Below are positions 6,342 to 29,199 of a DNA stretch of 32,021 nt, piece after piece. The position numbers and the translations under genes are program-made. The notes below the pieces were generated by a model. That model did not search any database and was not told where the DNA came from. It was given only the letters and a program-made list of their open reading frames with translations. Every line of letters starts with the position of its first letter. Position 1 is the stretch's first letter. Location: IMG/VR virus record IMGVR_UViG_2531839667_000012. One strand, 5' to 3'. Origin of the DNA: a virus. Lineage: Duplodnaviria; Heunggongvirae; Uroviricota; Caudoviricetes.

Positions 6342-7307
6342 ATGAGAAAGGCTCTGTTTGTTGGGATTAATGAATATGCGGAAATTTCTCATCTTGCGGG
6401 ATGTGAAAATGATGCTATGAAGATGTCTGCGGCATTGTCCAGACATGCGGATGGGCGTCCTAATTTTGAAGGGAAAGATTTGATTCACCGTGAGCAGATG
6501 CCTGTAACTAAGGTATTGCTTGAGCAAGAAATTCAGACTTTATTCAGTGGTTCAGCAGATATAGCTTTATTATTCTTTGCTGGGCATGGGTATTTTGATG
6601 AAAATATAGATGAAGGGGTTATCATTCCTCATGATTACTCTTCTCATCAAAGCAATGGTGTGAGAATCAGTGATATCATGCTATGGGCATCGAGAGCAAC
6701 CAATATTAAAAATAAAATAATAATACTAGATTGCTGTCAGGCGGGCGCTGCCGGACAAGTCAGGAACTTAAGAGGTGGAGACTCCATTCTTGCTGATGGC
6801 ACAACAATATTAACCGCATGTCAGCGTGATGAATATGCGCAAGAGCAGGATGGTCAGGGTATTTTTACAGCCTTAATGTTGGAGGCTTTATATGGCGCAG
6901 GTGCTAATATATTGGGGCATGTAACACCCGGTAGTTTGTATAGCTTTGTTGACCAAGCATTAGGTGCATGGGAGCAGCGACCGGTATTTAAAACAAATGT
7001 ATCCAGATTCGTAGTGCTAAGAGAAGTCGGGCCAAGAATCCCGTTAGAAACATTAAGGCAATTACCTGATTGGTTTGCTAGTGGTAGTGCTGAATATCCT
7101 CTTGATCCTAGTTACGAGCCTGATTCAGGAGCACCAAATGAGGATAATGTAAGGATATTTCGGCAATTACAAGCCTGTAATCGTCATGGCCTTGTTGAAC
7201 CTGTTAACGCAGAACATATGTATTATGCAGCGATGAATTCAACTGCATGTAGATTGACCGCTTTGGGAGCCTATTATAGAAAACTGGCAGAGAAAAGGCG
7301 TTTTTGA
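6342..7307 (+). CDS. Caspase-like protease (peptidase C14 / metacaspase-like His-Cys dyad) with C-terminal domain of unknown function
   Basis: 321 aa; KALFVGINEY start, FFAGHGYF (His-Gly) and IILDCCQAGAAG (catalytic Cys) in caspase order and spacing; AAGGA SD 7 nt upstream; AT-rich. Confidence 0.8.
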   Translation: MRKALFVGINEYAEISHLAGCENDAMKMSAALSRHADGRPNFEGKDLIHREQMPVTKVLLEQEIQTLFSGSADIALLFFAGHGYFDENIDEGVIIPHDYSSHQSNGVRISDIMLWASRATNIKNKIIILDCCQAGAAGQVRNLRGGDSILADGTTILTACQRDEYAQEQDGQGIFTALMLEALYGAGANILGHVTPGSLYSFVDQALGAWEQRPVFKTNVSRFVVLREVGPRIPLETLRQLPDWFASGSAEYPLDPSYEPDSGAPNEDNVRIFRQLQACNRHGLVEPVNAEHMYYAAMNSTACRLTALGAYYRKLAEKRRF

Positions 7308-13927: not shown

Positions 13928-13950
13928 CTTGTAACCACTGGCACTACAAG
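13928..13950 (-). promoter_or_regulatory. Ogr-box dyad (CTTGTA-N11-TACAAG) of the late promoter for the FI operon
   Basis: cttgtaaccactggcactacaag about 80 bp upstream of the FI start; same 23-bp pattern occurs at three other late-operon heads. Confidence 0.6.
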
Positions 13951-20265: not shown

Positions 20266-20288
20266 CTTGTAGGATAATGGGCTACAAG
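20266..20288 (-). promoter_or_regulatory. Ogr-box dyad (CTTGTA-N11-TACAAG) of the late promoter for V-W-J-I-H-G
   Basis: cttgtaggataatgggctacaag located 45-67 bp upstream of the V start. Confidence 0.6.
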
Positions 20289-23700: not shown

Positions 23701-23904
23701 TCAGTCCCACAGGTTGATTCGTTGACGTGCGGTGGCGGGAGCCTGTTCCGGTACGTTAACCGCCGTACCGTGTGGCAGGCGCAGCGGCAGTTCGCACAGG
23801 CGCGGGTTGTTCTGGTAAAGCTGTTCGACAATCCCGGCAGTGCGCCCGAAGATGCGCCAGCAGAGCTGATCGAGCGTTTCGTTTTGCAGGCTATAGACAA
23901 TCAT
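23701..23904 (-). CDS. X: Tail protein X (LysM-like)
   Basis: 67 aa; DQLCWRIFGRTAGIVEQLYQNNPRLCELPLRLPHGTAVNVP...LWD matches the P2 gpX pattern as I recall it. Confidence 0.85.
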   Translation of the reverse strand: MIVYSLQNETLDQLCWRIFGRTAGIVEQLYQNNPRLCELPLRLPHGTAVNVPEQAPATARQRINLWD

Positions 23905-23976: not shown

Positions 23977-23999
23977 CTTGTAACTGAGGGCAGTACAAG
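23977..23999 (-). promoter_or_regulatory. Ogr-box dyad (CTTGTA-N11-TACAAG) for a late promoter heading the X-lysis-R-S segment
   Basis: cttgtaactgagggcagtacaag about 75-95 bp upstream of the X start. Confidence 0.6.
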
Positions 24000-24018: not shown

Positions 24019-24339
24019 CTATGCCTCGTCGCTGTCGGTATTGATGATTTTCAGTTCAGCGGACTTCTGGAGCTGGATCAGCGCCGGAAGCAGAAGCGCG
24101 GTAGCCGACAGGCCATGCCCTAGCTGGCACAGGCTTTCAGCGGAGAATTCCAGCACGTTGCTGTCGGCAAAGGAGACGAAGGTTTTACCCAGAAAATGCA
24201 GGCCGTGACATAGTCCGGCGTAGCACTCTTCGCTGCTGTTGGCCAGTAGCAGAGTATCGTCGGCGTTCAGGTGTGAAATATCCATCTTGCGGATCGCGTC
24301 CGCCAGTTCAGAGGACAGAATATTGGTTTCAGGCACCAT
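24019..24339 (-). CDS. Hypothetical protein
   Basis: 106 aa ORF, backbone-like GC, overlaps the upstream 68-aa ORF by 11 nt; no motif recognised. Confidence 0.4.
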   Translation of the reverse strand: MVPETNILSSELADAIRKMDISHLNADDTLLLANSSEECYAGLCHGLHFLGKTFVSFADSNVLEFSAESLCQLGHGLSATALLLPALIQLQKSAELKIINTDSDEA

Positions 24340-24535
24340 GGCGCACCTCCAGCGGTTTGCAGGAGACGAACACCAGCGGGAAACCCGCCAGCAGGTCGCG
24401 AGCCTCGATTTCAGTTGTTGCCAGTACAGACACCAGACGCAGGGGCTGGATCTCGCGCAGCAGGCGGTTGGAACGGGCGTTCAGGAAGGTGTAGAGCTTT
24501 GAATGTGCGCGTATGTTACTATTAGCGGTAGCCAT
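24329..24535 (-). CDS. Hypothetical small protein
   Basis: 68 aa ORF, divergent from the Arc-like gene. Confidence 0.35.
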   Translation of the reverse strand: MATANSNIRAHSKLYTFLNARSNRLLREIQPLRLVSVLATTEIEARDLLAGFPLVFVSCKPLEVRHGA

Positions 24536-24635
24536 AGCATTAGCCTCTTTAATGTTGTGGTCAGAGGCCCGTTGGTGTTGGTAGCACCTGCGGGCTTCGT
24601 TCGTTTAAGGGTTGCAAAACATCACGTAATTGCGA

Positions 24636-24676
24636 TGTAATTACAACTACATCATTCTAAGGATTTTGTAATTACA
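24636..24676. promoter_or_regulatory. Two copies of the perfect 10-bp palindrome TGTAATTACA (24636-24645 and 24667-24676); candidate operators in a divergent promoter region
   Basis: Second copy ends immediately before the ATG of the Arc-like gene; an additional half-site-like GTAATTG at 24626-24632. Confidence 0.55.
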
Positions 24677-24847
24677 ATGTCAAGTGAAAAGGCTAAAACA
24701 GATCAGTACCAACTTCGTCTTGCTCATGAATTTAGAAAGCAGCTTGAAGAACAGGCTCGTAAAGATGGAGATACCTCTCTCGCAACATGGATAAAACGCG
24801 TTTTGCGTAAGGAACTTCAGTCACGAGGTATTGAACCCAAAGGATAA
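24677..24847 (+). CDS. Arc/MetJ-type ribbon-helix-helix repressor (56 aa; below the ORF-track size cutoff)
   Basis: Hand translation MSSEKAKTDQYQLRLAHEFRKQLEEQARKDGDTSLATWIKRVLRKELQSRGIEPKG; QYQLRLAHEF...SLATWIKRVL resembles Arc beta-strand and helices. Confidence 0.6.
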   Translation: MSSEKAKTDQYQLRLAHEFRKQLEEQARKDGDTSLATWIKRVLRKELQSRGIEPKG

Positions 24848-24948
24848 TTACGGAGATATCAAGCAGCGCTAAGAAGTTAGGATTATTTGTTCAGCCCAGA
24901 TTAGTCGATATGCACTGATTAACTTAAACATTGTGTGTAGGAGGTGTT

Positions 24949-25602
24949 GTGGATATTGAATTTTTTCTTAAAGAGCGCACAAGATTCGTTACTTATTTCT
25001 ATGAAACGGCTGCTGCACCATTTGTTAACATCATGAATGATATTGAGAATGAAGTGGAACCTTATATTCAGCCGTATGGTGAGAGTGATGAACCAGCTTT
25101 TTTAGATGAATGGTTAGATGCAAAGTCGGGATTAGAAACCTGTGGGCACCATGCATTATCGATGCTTTCGTCTTCTCTTCAGTTGTACCTGAAGGCGTGG
25201 GTAGATCGCTTAGGATATCATAGCGTGAAATCTGATATAAATTTCAAGAAGGGTTGGTTTAATGGCTATCGTGAAATTTTCAACAAAATTGAGTTGGAAA
25301 TGGCAAAATGTCCTGCAAATTTGGAAATAATTGAACAAATTCCCTTGGTGAGAAATCGTGTCCAGCATCCTGAGGAACTTACCTCAATTAATATTTCTCA
25401 CTCAAAAAATGACTTGGAAAAATATCCTCGCCCATACTTTATTCAGGAGTGTGAGCTACTTTTGGCTTCCGAACAGGAAGAAAAATCGTGGTTATTCCCA
25501 CCTACAATATCCCCGACTAAAGAGAAAATATTCGAAGCTATCAGAAATGTTGAAATGCTGTGCTCTTGGTTAGAGTCTGAGTATTGGTCGGCTCTTGACT
25601 AA
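24949..25602 (+). CDS. Hypothetical protein, AT-rich cargo gene under the Arc-like regulator
   Basis: ORF in the track starts at TTG 24931; GTG 24949 follows a GGAGG SD (short spacing). About 217-223 aa; no motif recognised. Confidence 0.5.
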   Translation: MDIEFFLKERTRFVTYFYETAAAPFVNIMNDIENEVEPYIQPYGESDEPAFLDEWLDAKSGLETCGHHALSMLSSSLQLYLKAWVDRLGYHSVKSDINFKKGWFNGYREIFNKIELEMAKCPANLEIIEQIPLVRNRVQHPEELTSINISHSKNDLEKYPRPYFIQECELLLASEQEEKSWLFPPTISPTKEKIFEAIRNVEMLCSWLESEYWSALD

Positions 25603-25637
25603 ATGTAGAATAGAGTAAGTCAGCGTCAAATGAAAAC

Positions 25638-25655
25638 AGCCCGACGAATCGGGCT
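25638..25655. terminator. Hairpin between convergent genes (candidate bidirectional terminator)
   Basis: AGCCCGA-cgaa-TCGGGCT stem-loop; T-run follows on the minus strand (GTTTTCA), weaker on the plus strand. Confidence 0.5.
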
Positions 25656-25691
25656 ATTATGGCTATCAGGCAAACACTACCTTCAAACTCA

Positions 25692-25928
25692 TTATGCCGC
25701 CTCAATACCCGCTCTGGTTAACATATAGTGGCCCCAGTGGGTTTTCTTCAGATAACCGGCCAGTTCCATCTGTGTCACAATAAATTCAGCGTTAACTATT
25801 TCTATATCTGCGTAGTCGGCCAGATCGCGCAGCGGCCATGTGCTGCGAACTCCGACGCTAACTATGGTATCTCTGATGCGGCGAGCGGTATCGGTCATTG
25901 GGCGGGTTCTGGCTGCCTGAATAGTCAT
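25692..25928 (-). CDS. Hypothetical small protein downstream of L
   Basis: Start chosen at ATG 25928 (MTIQAART...) with GGGGA upstream; ORF track begins at a GTG (25967). Confidence 0.4.
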   Translation of the reverse strand: MTIQAARTRPMTDTARRIRDTIVSVGVRSTWPLRDLADYADIEIVNAEFIVTQMELAGYLKKTHWGHYMLTRAGIEAA

Positions 25929-26043
25929 GGTATTTTCCCCTGTAAGTTCTTTCGTTGGGTCAGACACTAACTCTGGTGGGGAAGGGGCATCCAGCGTTCA
26001 GATGAGGCGATACGGTGATGCGCATCGCATATCCGTACTCTTT

Positions 26044-26511
26044 TTATACCAGAACAAACGTGCTACGCGGCTTGCCCAGAATATCCCGCACTGCGAAGCG
26101 GGCATCGCGCGCCAGATCGTCGGCGGTGCTTTCCTTTTGTTCCACCAGTTTGCTGCCGTGGGCGGTGGCATCAAAGTTACGGTAGCGTTCCAGCAGGTTT
26201 GCGTGCGTCAGGCTGTACACCGCGTGGCGGTAGCGGTGCAGGTTAACGCTTGCGCCGTCCAGTCGTTCGGTCGTGGTTTCCGCAATGCAAGTTGTGCCAC
26301 GGTTTTCCTGTTCCAGCCGCCATTCCCGCAGGTCGTCGTTTACGCTGGCCAGCGCAATCAGCAGCGCCTCGCGCAGCCGTTCGTTGGTGACGGTGCTGTC
26401 CAGCCGTTGGGTCGCACGCAGATGTTGCGTATCAATATCGGGAAAGAAAGGGTGGTTGCTGATAACCAGCCCCGGCAGACTGGCGGCGGGGGCAACCTGA
26501 ATAAAGCTCAT
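26044..26511 (-). CDS. L: Head completion/stabilisation protein (P2 gpL-like)
   Basis: Start chosen at ATG 26511 (MSFIQVAPAAS...) with AGGGAG upstream; about 155 aa. Confidence 0.75.
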   Translation of the reverse strand: MSFIQVAPAASLPGLVISNHPFFPDIDTQHLRATQRLDSTVTNERLREALLIALASVNDDLREWRLEQENRGTTCIAETTTERLDGASVNLHRYRHAVYSLTHANLLERYRNFDATAHGSKLVEQKESTADDLARDARFAVRDILGKPRSTFVLV

Positions 26512-26596
26512 TATATTCTCCCTGTTCGGCGGTGGACGGCGGGCGTTGCAGTGGTATAACCACGCGCGGCCAGCCGTGCCGCCGGTCGTGAGGGTC

Positions 26597-27250
26597 TCAC
26601 TCGGTAGGCTGACTGTTGCGAATTTGTCGCTCCAGTTGCTCAATCAGTTTTTTCACGCCGACGTTCTCATCCAGTTGTAGCGCGCGCTGGAACTGCGCCA
26701 GCGCCTCCTGCGGCTGGCTTTCGCTGTGTGCCAGCCCCAATGCCTTGTGCAGGCGGGCGCGAACCTGATCCGGCATGTCTTGGGAGGCTAACAGTCCGGC
26801 AAAGGCCAGCAGGCTGTCCAGCGCCACAAAGGTACCGGCGGCAAGCTGTTTCAGAGCGGTATCGGCAACCTCTTCAGCCACCATGCAGGCGGTCTGCCGT
26901 TGGTACTGATCCGGCGTTACCCAGCTGTGTTTCAGGGCGTGTTCCGCCATGGGGTAGGCAGCGGGAAAGTCGCCGGTATCCAGCGTCCAGAGCAGCACCG
27001 TCATAAACACATCGTCCTGATGCTTGCTGTCAGCGGCCAGAACGCCGCTTACCCACGGCTGGTAATCGGGCAGCAGTTCACCCTTAACCTCGATTTTACG
27101 TTCAATGGACTGGATCGCTTTCAGGCGGCGTTTATCGGTTGCCAGCTTTGCCAGCATCAGTTCATAGCCGCTGGCGTAGGTCTGGTTTTCCTGTTGATTT
27201 GCGGCCTGCGCCTGATGGCGCAACAGGTGGCGGCGGGCAGGCGTCATCAT
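26597..27250 (-). CDS. M: Terminase small subunit (P2 gpM-like)
   Basis: 217 aa; sequence resembles P2 M as I recall it; position after N. Confidence 0.85.
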   Translation of the reverse strand: MMTPARRHLLRHQAQAANQQENQTYASGYELMLAKLATDKRRLKAIQSIERKIEVKGELLPDYQPWVSGVLAADSKHQDDVFMTVLLWTLDTGDFPAAYPMAEHALKHSWVTPDQYQRQTACMVAEEVADTALKQLAAGTFVALDSLLAFAGLLASQDMPDQVRARLHKALGLAHSESQPQEALAQFQRALQLDENVGVKKLIEQLERQIRNSQPTE

Positions 27251-29176: not shown

Positions 29177-29199
29177 CTTGTAATCATCCGGGTTACAAG
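29177..29199. promoter_or_regulatory. Ogr-box dyad (CTTGTA-N11-TACAAG) in the divergent O/P promoter region
   Basis: cttgtaatcatccgggttacaag, 73 bp from the O start and 61 bp from the P start. Confidence 0.55.

Follow-up and report, generated by a model that had tools for sequence, protein, structure and literature searches.

A predicted SymR-like antisense RNA opposite a probable translationally coupled two-gene operon in the gpL-gpX interval of a P2-like prophage

INTRODUCTION

SymE/SymR has so far been regarded as an isolated chromosomal type I system. In the immI region of phage P22 (mnt, arc, ant, and sar RNA), small ribbon-helix-helix (RHH) repressors are found at divergent promoters and an antisense RNA lies over the effector ribosome-binding site (RBS), as we propose here; its gene order and proteins differ from those described below. 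The icd gene of phage P1 overlaps with ant1, and according to its annotation ant expression depends on it. The inhibition of FtsZ by P1 Icd maps to residues 12 to 51, and this region (Icd12-51) consists of three strands and a small helix (PMC11897509). Two reports catalogue the systems carried as cargo at the accessory/defence hotspot of P2-like phages (PMC13586616, PMC9122126).

We analyzed two small open reading frames (ORFs) of a P2-like prophage that lie in its gpL-gpX interval. The whole stretch of DNA analyzed, 32,021 nucleotides in length, is referred to as the window. The two ORFs are as follows.

24329 to 24535, minus strand: ORF1, 68 aa, a probable divergent Icd-like small protein and also the leader ORF of the operon (ORF listing, NF033153, hhalign, and AF2)
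24019 to 24339, minus strand: ORF2, 106 aa, a three-helix protein of a small family without annotation (full-length match to phrog_19484; AF2)

RESULTS

ORF1 and ORF2 are separate genes under purifying selection

An initial annotation of this DNA had described a 68-aa ORF and a 106-aa ORF that overlap by 11 nt on the minus strand. The ORF listing agreed with this description, and both ORFs start with ATG. The shared nucleotides lie at 24329 to 24339 (minus-strand letters ATGGTGCCTGA), and the RBS of ORF1, read from the sequence as AGAGG at 24544 to 24548, is 8 nt 5' of the ORF1 ATG. The GC content over both ORFs was 0.57, which is backbone-like as had been claimed (0.58 to 0.62 in the backbone versus 0.37 to 0.40 in the payload at 24600 to 25650). 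The absence of a P2 counterpart was likewise confirmed, as a tblastn search with both proteins and a megablast search with the region returned nothing from 50,697 phage records. These phage-record searches were empty although both ORFs are full-length matches to PHROG families (E values of 1.5e-45 and 3e-59). With no P2 homologue, and with the pair present in only 4 of 5,426 complete E. coli genomes, ORF1 and ORF2 do not count as P2 core (late-operon) genes.

The initial annotation had also allowed for spurious, unconserved ORFs. This is not the case, because both have homologues in many Enterobacterales. The pairwise dN/dS ratio was between 0.00 and 0.40 for both ORFs in every informative comparison (0.09 to 0.32 for ORF2); the exception was a ratio of 0.73, on a dS of 0.06, in one near-identical Photorhabdus pair. 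ORF1 and ORF2 are real, separate genes under purifying selection.

ORF1 resembles the core of P1 Icd, and ORF2 is a helical protein of a small family

Against the NCBIfam model NF033153, which has a curated cutoff of 25 bits, ORF1 scored 24.1 bits (E = 2.8e-5) and P1 Icd itself scored 52.6 bits. Eighteen of the 20 ORF1 homologues matched this model at an E value of ≤0.01 (best value, 4.5e-7), and several close homologues carry the NCBI name Icd-like. When the ORF1 family profile was compared with P1 Icd by hhalign, it aligned with P1 residues 26 to 48 (probability, 74%; E = 2.8e-5), an alignment that spans only about 23 to 30 residues. The AF2 model of ORF1 has a beta-beta-alpha-beta order (pLDDT, 72), and its top structural match in BFVD was an Icd-like protein (TM score, 0.65; nonsignificant E value of 0.07). 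In both similarity and fold, as judged by hhalign and AF2, ORF1 thus agrees with the functional core of P1 Icd at residues 12 to 51. ORF1 is probably a divergent Icd-like protein and, by analogy with P1 Icd, would therefore be a probable inhibitor of FtsZ and cell division.

The AF2 model of ORF2 (pLDDT, 87) consists of helices at residues 4 to 17, 26 to 59, and 67 to 105. Its family is small: an exhaustive profile search found 40 cluster representatives among 1.84 billion, and none of these ties it to a named family. ORF2 had no match in Pfam, NCBIfam, PADLOC, or, by sequence, the PDB. Foldseek searches of the PDB and BFVD gave nothing significant and only generic helical hairpins. Because ORF2 has no recognizable fold relative, motif, or transmembrane segment, its toxicity is a guess; it may be a growth-inhibitory or regulatory effector.

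Several possible relatives of ORF2 were considered and set aside. By hhalign, the ORF2 family is unrelated to SymE (probability, 0.1%) and to the ORF that follows the Icd-like gene in an E. coli satellite. The comparison with the 135-aa ORF2 of variant viral contigs (E = 0.033; probability, 1.5%) was suggestive but was not counted as evidence; the local alignment pairs TFITKK...LIALAHGIH with TFVSFA...LCQLGHGLS. Metal binding by GLCH/CQLGH motifs was dropped, as Cys and His are not retained in remote homologues.

The start of ORF2 is embedded in the end of ORF1

The region in which the two genes meet is as follows.

24329 to 24350, minus strand: coupling junction, with the ORF2 RBS (GGAGG, 24346 to 24350) and ATG (24337 to 24339) inside the end of ORF1

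The ORF2 RBS is placed 6 nt 5' of the ORF2 ATG. The overlap was kept in E. coli, Yersinia, Leminorella, Kosakonia, Phytobacter, and Photorhabdus, with a length of 8 nt in Photorhabdus versus 11 nt elsewhere. The last four codons of ORF1 (codons 65 to 68) were 94% identical at synonymous sites. In every lineage the ORF2 RBS was paired in a local hairpin, and the hairpin sequences differ between lineages. A translationally coupled pair, one of the readings first offered for this locus, is thus supported by the conserved overlap, the frozen synonymous sites at the end of ORF1, and the sequestered ORF2 RBS. The computational evidence establishes both the reality of the genes and the geometry of their coupling. 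As for the toxin-antitoxin-like unit suggested at the same time, its logic fits the locus, but the antitoxin-like part probably falls to a cis-antisense RNA, as in type I systems, and to neither of the two proteins.

A conserved SymR-like RNA is predicted opposite the ORF1 leader

The main new result is a conserved, predicted plus-strand antisense RNA of about 77 nt, which is complementary to the leader, RBS, and start codon of ORF1.

24530 to 24606, plus strand: predicted SymR-like cis-antisense RNA of about 77 nt (symR match, fold, covariation, and strand bias)
24514 to 24522, plus strand: extended -10 promoter of the antisense RNA, TGtTACTAT, inside ORF1 codons 5 to 8, with the predicted start at A 24530

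Hairpin 1 of this RNA (24531 to 24561) has the loop CCUCU at 24544 to 24548, which is the complement of the ORF1 RBS, and the complement of the ORF1 start codon is within its stem. Hairpin 2 (24564 to 24598) is followed by a U-rich tail, which is found on the plus strand only. The Rfam symR model (RF01809) matched with its positions 1 to 77 at 24530 to 24601 on the plus strand. The score of 34.9 bits (E = 4e-5 to 3e-4) is far below the gathering score of 61 bits, and the true K-12 symR scored 95.3 bits. No C4, isrK, or any other Rfam family was found within the window. With a covariance model built from these loci (model R1), whose E values are rough, the true K-12 symR was recovered with its start exactly as annotated (27.7 bits; E = 5e-5), and further sites turned up ahead of Icd-like genes carried by three E. 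coli satellites (44 to 50 bits).

The antisense RNA folded with an energy of -39.2 kcal/mol (z = -6.8). Among 22 distinct sequences of the element, 97% of cells were paired and five pairs were compensatory, with such changes seen in the terminator hairpin. The covariation score was 0.223 versus 0.110 in shuffles, above 500 of 500 shuffles and all slid controls. Hairpin 1 is invariant and therefore adds nothing to the covariation; the RBS and the start codon alone could account for this invariance. The promoter pattern TGnTAC[TC]AT was kept in 25 of 27 distinct sequences across three coding contexts. Consistent codon use was found at the same end of the gene: among amino-acid-identical pairs, 95.6% of codons 1 to 13 of ORF1 were identical, compared with 63 to 66% in the middle of the ORF. 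The element has the SymR layout, namely, a length of about 77 nt, two hairpins, a promoter in the ORF, and coverage of the RBS and start codon, with expression predicted. Its structure, strand specificity, promoter footprint, terminator, and resemblance to SymR are established computationally. That the RNA is expressed, starts at the indicated position, and represses translation is predicted from these features.

Promoter, operators, and surroundings of the operon

The other features of the island and its borders are as follows.

24654 to 24683, minus strand: sigma-70-type promoter of the ORF1-ORF2 mRNA, TTGACA/18 nt/TAGAAT, with 11 of 12 consensus positions (a consensus match only)
24626 to 24675, unstranded: three GTAATTRC palindromes (24626 to 24633, 24637 to 24644, and 24668 to 24675), probable RHH operators
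24677 to 24847, plus strand: divergent 56-aa Arc/YlcI/YnfO-like RHH gene, the first of the cargo operon (phrog_228)
24931 to 25602, plus strand: AT-rich 223-aa cargo gene, the variable part of the island (phrog_28203; E = 2e-128)
25635 to 25658, minus strand: terminator-like hairpin at the L-side island boundary, with the 91-aa ORF that follows gpL on one side and the convergent cargo gene on the other
23978 to 23998, unstranded: TTGTA-N11-TACAA dyad at the center of the strong inverted repeat that separates ORF2 from gpX (pattern count and fold)

The mRNA leader predicted from the sigma-70-type promoter is about 110 nt long and spans the entire antisense RNA. The pair is divergent from the Arc-like gene and shares with it a promoter region that contains palindromes, as was initially described: the three GTAATTRC sites lie in a 141-nt intergenic region, one of them within the spacer of the promoter and the other two shortly after the predicted mRNA start. 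Across the window there are 7 such sites versus 1.8 expected. The repeats vary between loci in step with the N-terminal, DNA-reading beta-strand of the divergent RHH protein. They are probable operators of this protein, which would then be a repressor of the ORF1-ORF2 promoter. The 56-aa gene matched the Arc-like repressor family phrog_228 (E = 3.5e-6), and its matches to Pfam Arc and NCBIfam YlcI_YnfO were below threshold. The 223-aa cargo protein had no match in Pfam or PADLOC.

On the gpX side, the pattern TTGTA-N11-TACAA occurs exactly 4 times in the window versus 0.36 expected, and the remaining three dyads are upstream of the V, sheath, and O/P operons. The dyad at 23978 to 23998 is probably an activator site of a P2-type late promoter from which X and the lysis genes are transcribed. 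The ORF2-gpX hairpin (z = -4.5 for its fold) was also considered as an intrinsic terminator, but it lacks a U tail and the late-promoter dyad explains it better.

The module occurs in three layouts, within and outside phages

The ORF1-ORF2 pair, overlap included, was found in at least five genera. In E. coli, L725 and CEC15 have the module at 97% identity. Relatives showed three layouts: an Icd-like ORF followed by a 106-aa ORF, a truncated 40-aa leader ORF followed by a 105-aa ORF, and a single ORF of 113 to 116 aa. The antisense RNA was present in all three layouts and the divergent RHH gene in nearly all, with a homologous gene in 31 of 36 leader-carrying loci. ORF1 is shortened to 40 aa in Kosakonia-type loci, and the Icd core is absent in Pectobacterium-type loci; therefore, Icd activity is not essential to the module. 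Icd-like genes in satellites and other viral contigs precede unrelated small genes.

The equivalent cargo region, on the RHH side of the module, carried toxin-antitoxin pairs in relatives. Phd/Doc was found downstream of the RHH gene in two E. coli loci (L002 and L003), a RelE/ParE pair within the cargo region of a third (L001), MazEF and RelB/YafQ in Yersinia, and a HigB-like/HTH pair in Photorhabdus. The module was also found outside phages: in Pectobacterium, Serratia, and Symbiopectobacterium it adjoins a P4-type integrase and toxin-antitoxin genes, with no recognizable phage, and in Kosakonia it adjoins toxin-antitoxin genes.

DISCUSSION

The locus is probably a repressor- and antisense-gated, translationally coupled operon, comparable to type I toxin-antitoxin systems or to the immI regions of P1 and P22, with protein activities that we infer. 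According to this proposal, a sigma-70 promoter overlapped by operators of the RHH protein would yield an mRNA with a leader of about 110 nt. A cis-antisense RNA of about 77 nt, beginning 6 nt inside ORF1, would be fully complementary to this leader, and with the RBS complement in its hairpin 1 loop it would block ribosome loading on ORF1. The 11-nt overlap, together with the hairpin in which the ORF2 RBS is paired, would tie translation of ORF2 to that of ORF1. With ORF1 blocked and ORF2 coupled to it, both proteins would therefore be made only once transcription outruns the antisense RNA. We also think it likely that the two ORFs are one arm of a self-contained mobile regulatory-effector module in the gpL-gpX accessory/defence hotspot.

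A broader version of the proposal is plausible but tentative. A portable "translation lock," made up of the SymR-like RNA together with its internal promoter and roughly the first 10 codons, might have been joined by mobile elements to unrelated effectors; SymE/SymR would then be a domesticated offshoot of an immunity cassette of mobile elements, and ORF2 would belong to a toxin or antirepressor class not recognized before. The targets of such a lock would include SymE on the E. coli chromosome, the Icd-like genes that head satellite replication operons, and the 106-aa family. The 106-aa protein would then be freed once the RHH repressor and the RNA are overcome, for example, upon infection or induction.

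The alternative that survives best, which we nevertheless regard as unlikely, is an immI-like antirepressor module in which ORF2, as a small antirepressor or anti-regulator, inactivates the RHH protein or a phage immunity repressor and ORF1 is mainly an antisense-controlled leader. ORF2 does stand in the place of Ant, downstream of icd in P1 or of arc and sar RNA in P22, and the P1 order c4-icd-ant, with icd overlapping ant1, is matched. Moreover, the leader cassette is found 5' of several unrelated ORF2s of 119 to 135 aa in viral contigs and, in satellites, 5' of small ORFs that precede the primase operon, and genuine C4, isrK, and c4-target RNAs adjoin it in Yersinia and in one satellite. 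ORF2, a soluble helical hairpin, is also retained where ORF1 is truncated or lost. However, ORF2 has no similarity to any known antirepressor in Pfam, NCBIfam, PHROG, the PDB, or Foldseek searches, and the integrase and toxin-antitoxin surroundings of the Pectobacterium, Serratia, Symbiopectobacterium, and Kosakonia modules speak against this role.

It is much less probable that the conserved hairpins work in the sense mRNA leader, in stability, in processing, or as a cis-acting switch, and that the antisense RNA is not made. Inverted repeats can fold on either strand, and the invariant hairpin 1 gives no strand-neutral covariation evidence. However, the mean folding energy was -37.9 kcal/mol for the antisense strand versus -20.8 kcal/mol for the sense strand, and the antisense fold was better in 22 of 22 sequences; the sense strand is about 17 kcal/mol less stable, since G-U pairs are numerous in the plus-strand fold. 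The run of T 3' of the hairpin on the plus strand only also favors the antisense RNA, as does the conserved plus-strand -10 element, which is correctly spaced upstream and has frozen synonymous sites, and SymR, with an identical layout, has been proven experimentally (PMC1891008).

Slightly weaker still is a type II-like pair in which one protein neutralizes the other, which we consider very improbable. The small, overlapping, cotranscribed genes, the abundance of type II toxin-antitoxin cargo in the hotspot, and the growth inhibition known for Icd-like proteins (PMC11897509) would suit it. However, searches of Pfam, NCBIfam, and PADLOC placed neither protein in a family of toxins or antitoxins, and both lack a DNA-binding antitoxin domain. 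In many loci each gene occurs without the other, contrary to the obligate co-occurrence expected of such a pair, so the initial idea of a small toxin-antitoxin-like unit is improbable in the form of two proteins.

Finally, a single gene broken by a frameshift or sequencing error, also raised in the initial annotation, is already refuted by comparative data: purifying selection acts in both frames, ORF1 belongs to an independent Icd-like family of its own, and the two-ORF layout with an identical overlap recurs in independent assemblies of several genera and in about 25 viral contigs. The uninterrupted ORF that had been expected under that reading does exist, as single ORFs of 113 to 116 aa in Pectobacterium, Brenneria, Serratia, Erwinia, and Symbiopectobacterium, but these consist of the first 14 or so leader codons joined to the 106-aa body, lack ORF1 residues ~15 to 68, and are therefore not the product of mending a frameshift here.

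If the resemblance to SymR is borne out by experiment, SymR-like cis-antisense RNAs would make up a wider family, with Icd-like and other small genes under their control in P2-like prophages, in satellites, and in integrase-borne islands. Three classic designs of RNA-controlled immunity (SymR, P1 c4-icd-ant, and P22 sar-ant) would thereby be connected, and a known defence-gene hotspot would have a conserved anchor at its edge. An unusually tight expression lock is usually a sign of toxic or switch-like activity, and the uncharacterized 106-aa helical family is predicted to be under such a lock. In annotation, ORF1 and ORF2 should be entered as genes, with no pseudogene, and a predicted small RNA gene, so far unannotated, should be added.

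Comparison with known systems

The module has the same gpL-gpX location as the defence/accessory hotspot downstream of gpL in P2-like phages, as presented in PMC13586616 and by Rousset et al. (2022; PMC9122126). Its relatives carry variable toxin-antitoxin or defence-type cargo between gpL and gpX. The conserved anchor, consisting of the RHH gene, the antisense RNA, the Icd-like ORF, and the 106-aa ORF, was not found in the portions of PMC13586616 considered.

In the immI region of P1/P7, and probably here, the first gene is a small ORF of the Icd family with an end that overlaps the next gene, and the RBS of icd is the target of an antisense RNA, as that of ORF1 would be. However, c4 of P1/P7 is encoded 5' of its target on one and the same transcript and relies on short loops for pairing, whereas the RNA predicted here is a fully complementary cis-antisense RNA, and no C4-family match was found within the window. 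The downstream gene also differs: Ant1 has 348 aa, and the unrelated protein here has 106 aa.

SymE/SymR (RF01809; Kawano et al., 2007, PMC1891008), whose properties we took from that report, has a cis-antisense RNA of about 77 nt with its promoter in the first codons of the target, as predicted here. K-12 symR overlaps symE by 6 nt, the same overlap as that with ORF1. Both RNAs have two hairpins with the RBS complement in the first loop. Covariance-model matches between them are reciprocal, yet below the Rfam gathering threshold. The two loci also have similar spacing from the -10 element to the start, a GTGTC discriminator, and similar N-terminal codons (MTDTHSI versus MADTDSN). In both, transcription of the target is under a DNA-binding repressor, LexA for symE and, putatively, the divergent RHH protein here. 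SymE has an AbrB fold, whereas the targets here are unrelated to it (no Pfam SymE match; hhalign probability of 0.1% for the 106-aa family). Unlike symE, the target here is a coupled two-gene operon, and whereas SymE/SymR resides in the hsd/mcr region, the element described here resides in mobile elements.

Two small genes between gpL and gpX

By gene content and Pfam matches, the window is a P2-like prophage. The features surrounding the ORF pair are as follows:

26044-26643 (-), gpL (Phage_GPL)
25692-25967 (-), 91-aa ORF directly downstream of gpL
25635-25658, terminator-like hairpin after the 91-aa ORF, facing the convergent cargo gene
24931-25602 (+), cargo gene, 223 aa, AT-rich (37-40% GC), downstream of the Arc-like gene
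24677-24847 (+), divergent Arc/YlcI-like (ribbon-helix-helix) gene, 56 aa
24683-24654 (-), predicted sigma-70 promoter of the ORF1-ORF2 mRNA, TTGACA-18-TAGAAT
24530-24606 (+), predicted SymR-like antisense RNA
24329-24535 (-), ORF1, 68 aa, good ribosome-binding site
24019-24339 (-), ORF2, 106 aa, good ribosome-binding site
23701-23904 (-), gpX (Phage_tail_X)

The minus-strand order was gpL, the 91-aa ORF, the island with the ORF pair, gpX, two holins, and N-acetylmuramidase. An annotated E. coli prophage, 97% identical, had the same order, flanked by P/O/N/M on one side and lysis/R/S/V/W/J/I on the other. The coordinates, sizes, strand, and 11-nt overlap of the ORFs (ATGGTGCCTGA) were as the initial annotation had placed them. 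Its description of the surroundings also held: the GC content of the pair (0.57) is close to that of the backbone (0.58-0.62) and differs from that of the neighboring payload (0.37-0.40), and the divergent Arc-like gene is accompanied by a palindromic promoter region with three GTAATTRC palindromes. As it had further claimed, P2 has no counterpart; no match to either protein or to the region DNA was found among 50,697 records of P2 and other phages.

A single gene broken by a frameshift had been considered as one explanation of the pair. However, both ORFs matched PHROG families over their full length (ORF1, E = 1.5e-45; ORF2, E = 3e-59), and homologues were found in Escherichia, Salmonella, Klebsiella, Yersinia, Serratia, Leminorella, Kosakonia, Arsenophonus, and Photorhabdus. 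Pairwise dN/dS, with dS up to saturation, was 0.00-0.40 for ORF1 and 0.09-0.32 for ORF2, the sole exception being a near-identical Photorhabdus pair (0.73 on a dS of 0.06). The two-ORF layout with the 11-nt overlap recurred in four E. coli prophages, Yersinia, Leminorella, and about 25 IMG/VR contigs; in Photorhabdus, the overlap was 8 nt. Therefore, a frameshift or sequencing error is excluded. Judged by this constraint on both ORFs and the same overlap across genera, ORF1 and ORF2 are real, separate genes. In another IMG/VR record (IMGVR_UViG_2531839446_000022), ORF1 was identical to that of the window and ORF2 was of equal length and identical over the 70 residues compared; this is probably the same prophage or a near-identical one.

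ORF1 and ORF2 proteins

NCBIfam NF033153 matched 18 of 20 ORF1 homologues and scored 24.1 bits against ORF1 itself (cut-off, 25), and several close homologues carry the NCBI name Icd-like. An hhalign comparison of the ORF1 family profile with phage P1 Icd gave a probability of 74% (E = 2.8e-5). The AlphaFold model was beta-beta-alpha-beta (pLDDT 72), and its best BFVD match, not significant at E = 0.07, was an Icd-like protein. ORF1 probably belongs to the Icd-like family as a divergent member. Residues 12-51 of P1 Icd block FtsZ ring formation (PMC11897509). The ORF2 family is small, with 40 cluster representatives among 1.84 billion in a profile search and no relatives in Pfam, NCBIfam, PADLOC, or PDB. 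Its model (pLDDT 87), a long helical hairpin plus a short helix, had no significant match among PDB and BFVD structures.

Two sets of loci were atypical. In Arsenophonus (L007-L009 and L018), an intact, chromosomal 104-aa ORF2 homologue adjoins fur, ORF1 has degenerated (31% identity) and is not called as a gene, the TG is missing from the antisense -10, and the ribbon-helix-helix gene is absent; these loci are probably a decaying or domesticated remnant. In E. coli 24A16CRGN010 (L003, 5826-6171), the conserved leader ATG is 335 nt upstream of the 106-aa gene rather than 196 nt, and the annotation splits ORF1 into two 58-aa ORFs. An insertion or rearrangement within ORF1 seems to have left ORF2 and the overlap unharmed.

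A predicted SymR-like antisense RNA

Under permissive settings, an Rfam scan yielded one notable match, to the full-length symR model at 24530-24601 (+), antisense to the leader, ribosome-binding site, and start codon of ORF1. At 34.9 bits (E, 4e-5 to 3e-4), it is below the gathering score of 61, and by that criterion the predicted RNA falls outside RF01809. The 77-nt stretch folds into two hairpins (-39.2 kcal/mol, z = -6.8), with a U-rich tail directly after hairpin 2. The 5-nt loop of hairpin 1, CCUCU (24544-24548), is the exact complement of the ORF1 ribosome-binding site, and the complement of the start codon lies within its stem.

The element was kept in all 36 leader-carrying loci picked from the collected set (L001-L041), with varying operators upstream of it. 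Among 22 distinct sequences, standard pairs filled 97% of cells and five pairs of hairpin 2 showed compensatory changes; hairpin 1 was invariant and thus contributes no covariation evidence. The covariation score was 0.223, versus 0.110 after shuffling (reached in 0 of 500 shuffles) and at most 0.068 in slid controls. The antisense strand folded better than the sense strand in 22/22 (mean, -37.9 versus -20.8 kcal/mol) owing to the many G-U pairs that form on the plus strand. A T-run follows the hairpin on the plus strand only. Of 27 distinct sequences, 25 have an extended -10, TGnTAC(T/C)AT, 7 nt before the predicted +1 A, and the codons overlapping it belong to three different coding contexts. 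The G-U-dependent fold, the plus-only T-run, and the conserved -10 mark the plus strand as the one under selection. Among amino-acid-identical pairs, 95.6% of codons 1-13 of ORF1 were identical, versus 63-66% in mid-ORF, a freezing consistent with the predicted embedded promoter.

The 77-nt symR of K-12 and the symE start share 6 nt, as do the predicted RNA and ORF1 (24530-24535). A covariance model built solely from loci of this family (R1) found K-12 symR at its exact annotated start (L042, 3336-3422; 27.7 bits, E = 5e-5 in ~100 kb), as well as sites immediately before Icd-like genes in three E. coli satellite-like islands (44-50 bits). The -10-to-start spacing and a GTGTC discriminator are common to both RNAs, and the N-terminal coding sequences are alike (MTDTHSI in symE, MADTDSN in Pectobacterium-type loci). 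The targets of the predicted RNA are unrelated to SymE. Experiments have shown that SymR is transcribed from a promoter within symE and represses symE translation (PMC1891008). In architecture, position, and reciprocal similarity, the predicted RNA is SymR-like.

Architectures and predicted translational coupling

Three layouts were found. In the first, an Icd-like ORF1 precedes a 106-aa ORF (E. coli, Salmonella, Yersinia, Leminorella, and Photorhabdus). In the second, a 105-aa ORF follows a 40-aa ORF1 retaining only the N terminus (MAxANG...) and C terminus (...EVRxAA), again with an 11-nt overlap (Kosakonia, Phytobacter, and an Enterobacter MAG). The third is a single ORF of 113-116 aa (Pectobacterium, Brenneria, Symbiopectobacterium, Serratia marcescens, and Erwinia). 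The uninterrupted ORF that the initial annotation had envisaged elsewhere does exist, but it joins the initial ~14 codons of the leader to the 106-aa body. Many remote family members start with MA[DTN]xNS[TN]T, which is, on our reading, the protein image of the predicted antisense promoter. In other viral contigs, the same leader carries a truncated ORF1 of 41 aa, which shares an 8-nt overlap with unrelated ORF2s of 119 or 135 aa. What stays constant across these layouts is therefore a leader under predicted antisense control followed by a coupled gene, and the Icd core is optional.

In every lineage, the end of ORF1 contains a complement with which the ORF2 ribosome-binding site pairs, and the sequences differ (UCUCC/GGAGG, UUUCUC/GAGAAG, and UUCCUUUGG/CUAGGGGAA). 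This predicted pairing is a classic translational-coupling arrangement. The reading as a coupled, toxin-antitoxin-like pair is partly right: the coupling geometry is conserved, but the probable antidote is an RNA and not one of the proteins.

Predicted promoter and operators

A divergent ribbon-helix-helix gene (54-64 aa) was present in 31 of the 36 leader-carrying loci. The proteins share a C-terminal motif, WIKRxLRKEL..RGIE, and their N-terminal beta-strand is of five or six types, each paired with different operator repeats. Of the GTAATTAC sites in the window, one lies in the spacer of the predicted ORF1-ORF2 promoter and two just downstream, positions suggesting that the protein is likely its repressor. 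Two more GTAATTGC copies, 105 nt apart and remote from the island (7058-7065 and 7163-7170, -), may be chance or additional sites of the Arc-like protein.

Cargo and spread

The ribbon-helix-helix gene heads variable cargo. The 223-aa cargo gene matched phrog_28203 (E = 2e-128) and had no match in Pfam or PADLOC. It may encode a defence or toxin function not yet recognised, because relatives hold toxin-antitoxin pairs in the equivalent region: Phd/Doc after the ribbon-helix-helix gene in two E. coli relatives, a 177-aa gene there and RelE/ParE on the opposite strand in a third, MazEF and RelB/YafQ in Yersinia, and HigB-like/HTH pairs in Photorhabdus. PMC13586616 describes the gpL-downstream site as a recognised P2 defence hotspot with 16% of P2 defence systems.

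The module adjoins a tRNA and a P4-type integrase, not a P2-like phage, in Pectobacterium, Serratia, and Symbiopectobacterium, and toxin-antitoxin genes outside P2-like phages in Kosakonia. In E. coli satellites, the ribbon-helix-helix gene faces an Icd-like gene at the head of a primase/helicase operon. A related RNA cassette occurred in about 100 of 5,426 E. coli genomes, the ORF1-ORF2 pair in only 4. In three integrase-borne satellite-like islands of E. coli (L043-L045), a cassette with a YlcI/YnfO-like gene facing a SymR-like RNA, an Icd-like gene, and a small ORF heads a DUF4222 - primase/RepA helicase - SSB operon; the small ORFs have no relation to the 106-aa family. One of the islands sits among capsid genes and may be a capsid-forming PICI-like element. 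Rfam C4, isrK, and c4-a1b1 matches above the gathering score adjoin the cassette in Yersinia (L010, 6561-6646 and 9377-9582) and lie within the Icd-like gene run of an E. coli satellite (L043, 3215-3881). P1-type RNA immunity elements are therefore found alongside the SymR-like cassette.

Probable insulation from the late operon

Between ORF2 and gpX, a strong inverted repeat lacks a U tail and is centered on TTGTA-N11-TACAA, which occurs exactly 4 times in the window versus 0.36 expected, each upstream of a late operon:

29178-29198, O/P
23978-23998, X/lysis
20267-20287, V
13929-13949, sheath gene

These dyads fit the P2 late-promoter activator dyad, TGT-N12-ACA, and they look like P2-type Ogr/Delta activator sites. 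Given the dyad before gpX, this gene and the lysis genes are probably served by a late promoter of their own, implying that an extra late promoter arose or was retained at the point where the L-X island interrupts the P2 O-operon. The ORF pair is probably not simply part of the late transcript. The 91-aa ORF had weak winged-helix-like matches (phrog_331, E = 1.3e-6), and E. coli relatives carry homologous small ORFs at its position.

Proposed mechanism and comparison with known systems

From the sequence-level signatures that we observed, we infer RNA expression, repression, ribbon-helix-helix control, and activities of both proteins. The ribbon-helix-helix protein would hold the ORF1-ORF2 promoter low, and abundant antisense RNA would bind the full leader of any mRNA made, hiding the ribosome-binding site and AUG. 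With ORF1 untranslated, the ORF2 ribosome-binding site would remain sequestered. Upon repression failure or a transcription surge, ORF1, a probable division inhibitor, and ORF2 would be made together. The main rival, that ORF2 is an antirepressor-like regulator and not a toxin, seems to us unlikely. The proposed logic of the module is that of SymE/SymR and of the P1 c4-icd-ant region; in the latter, icd overlaps ant1 and is annotated as needed for ant expression. As predicted here, the module is type I toxin-antitoxin-like or immI-like with a SymR-like RNA.
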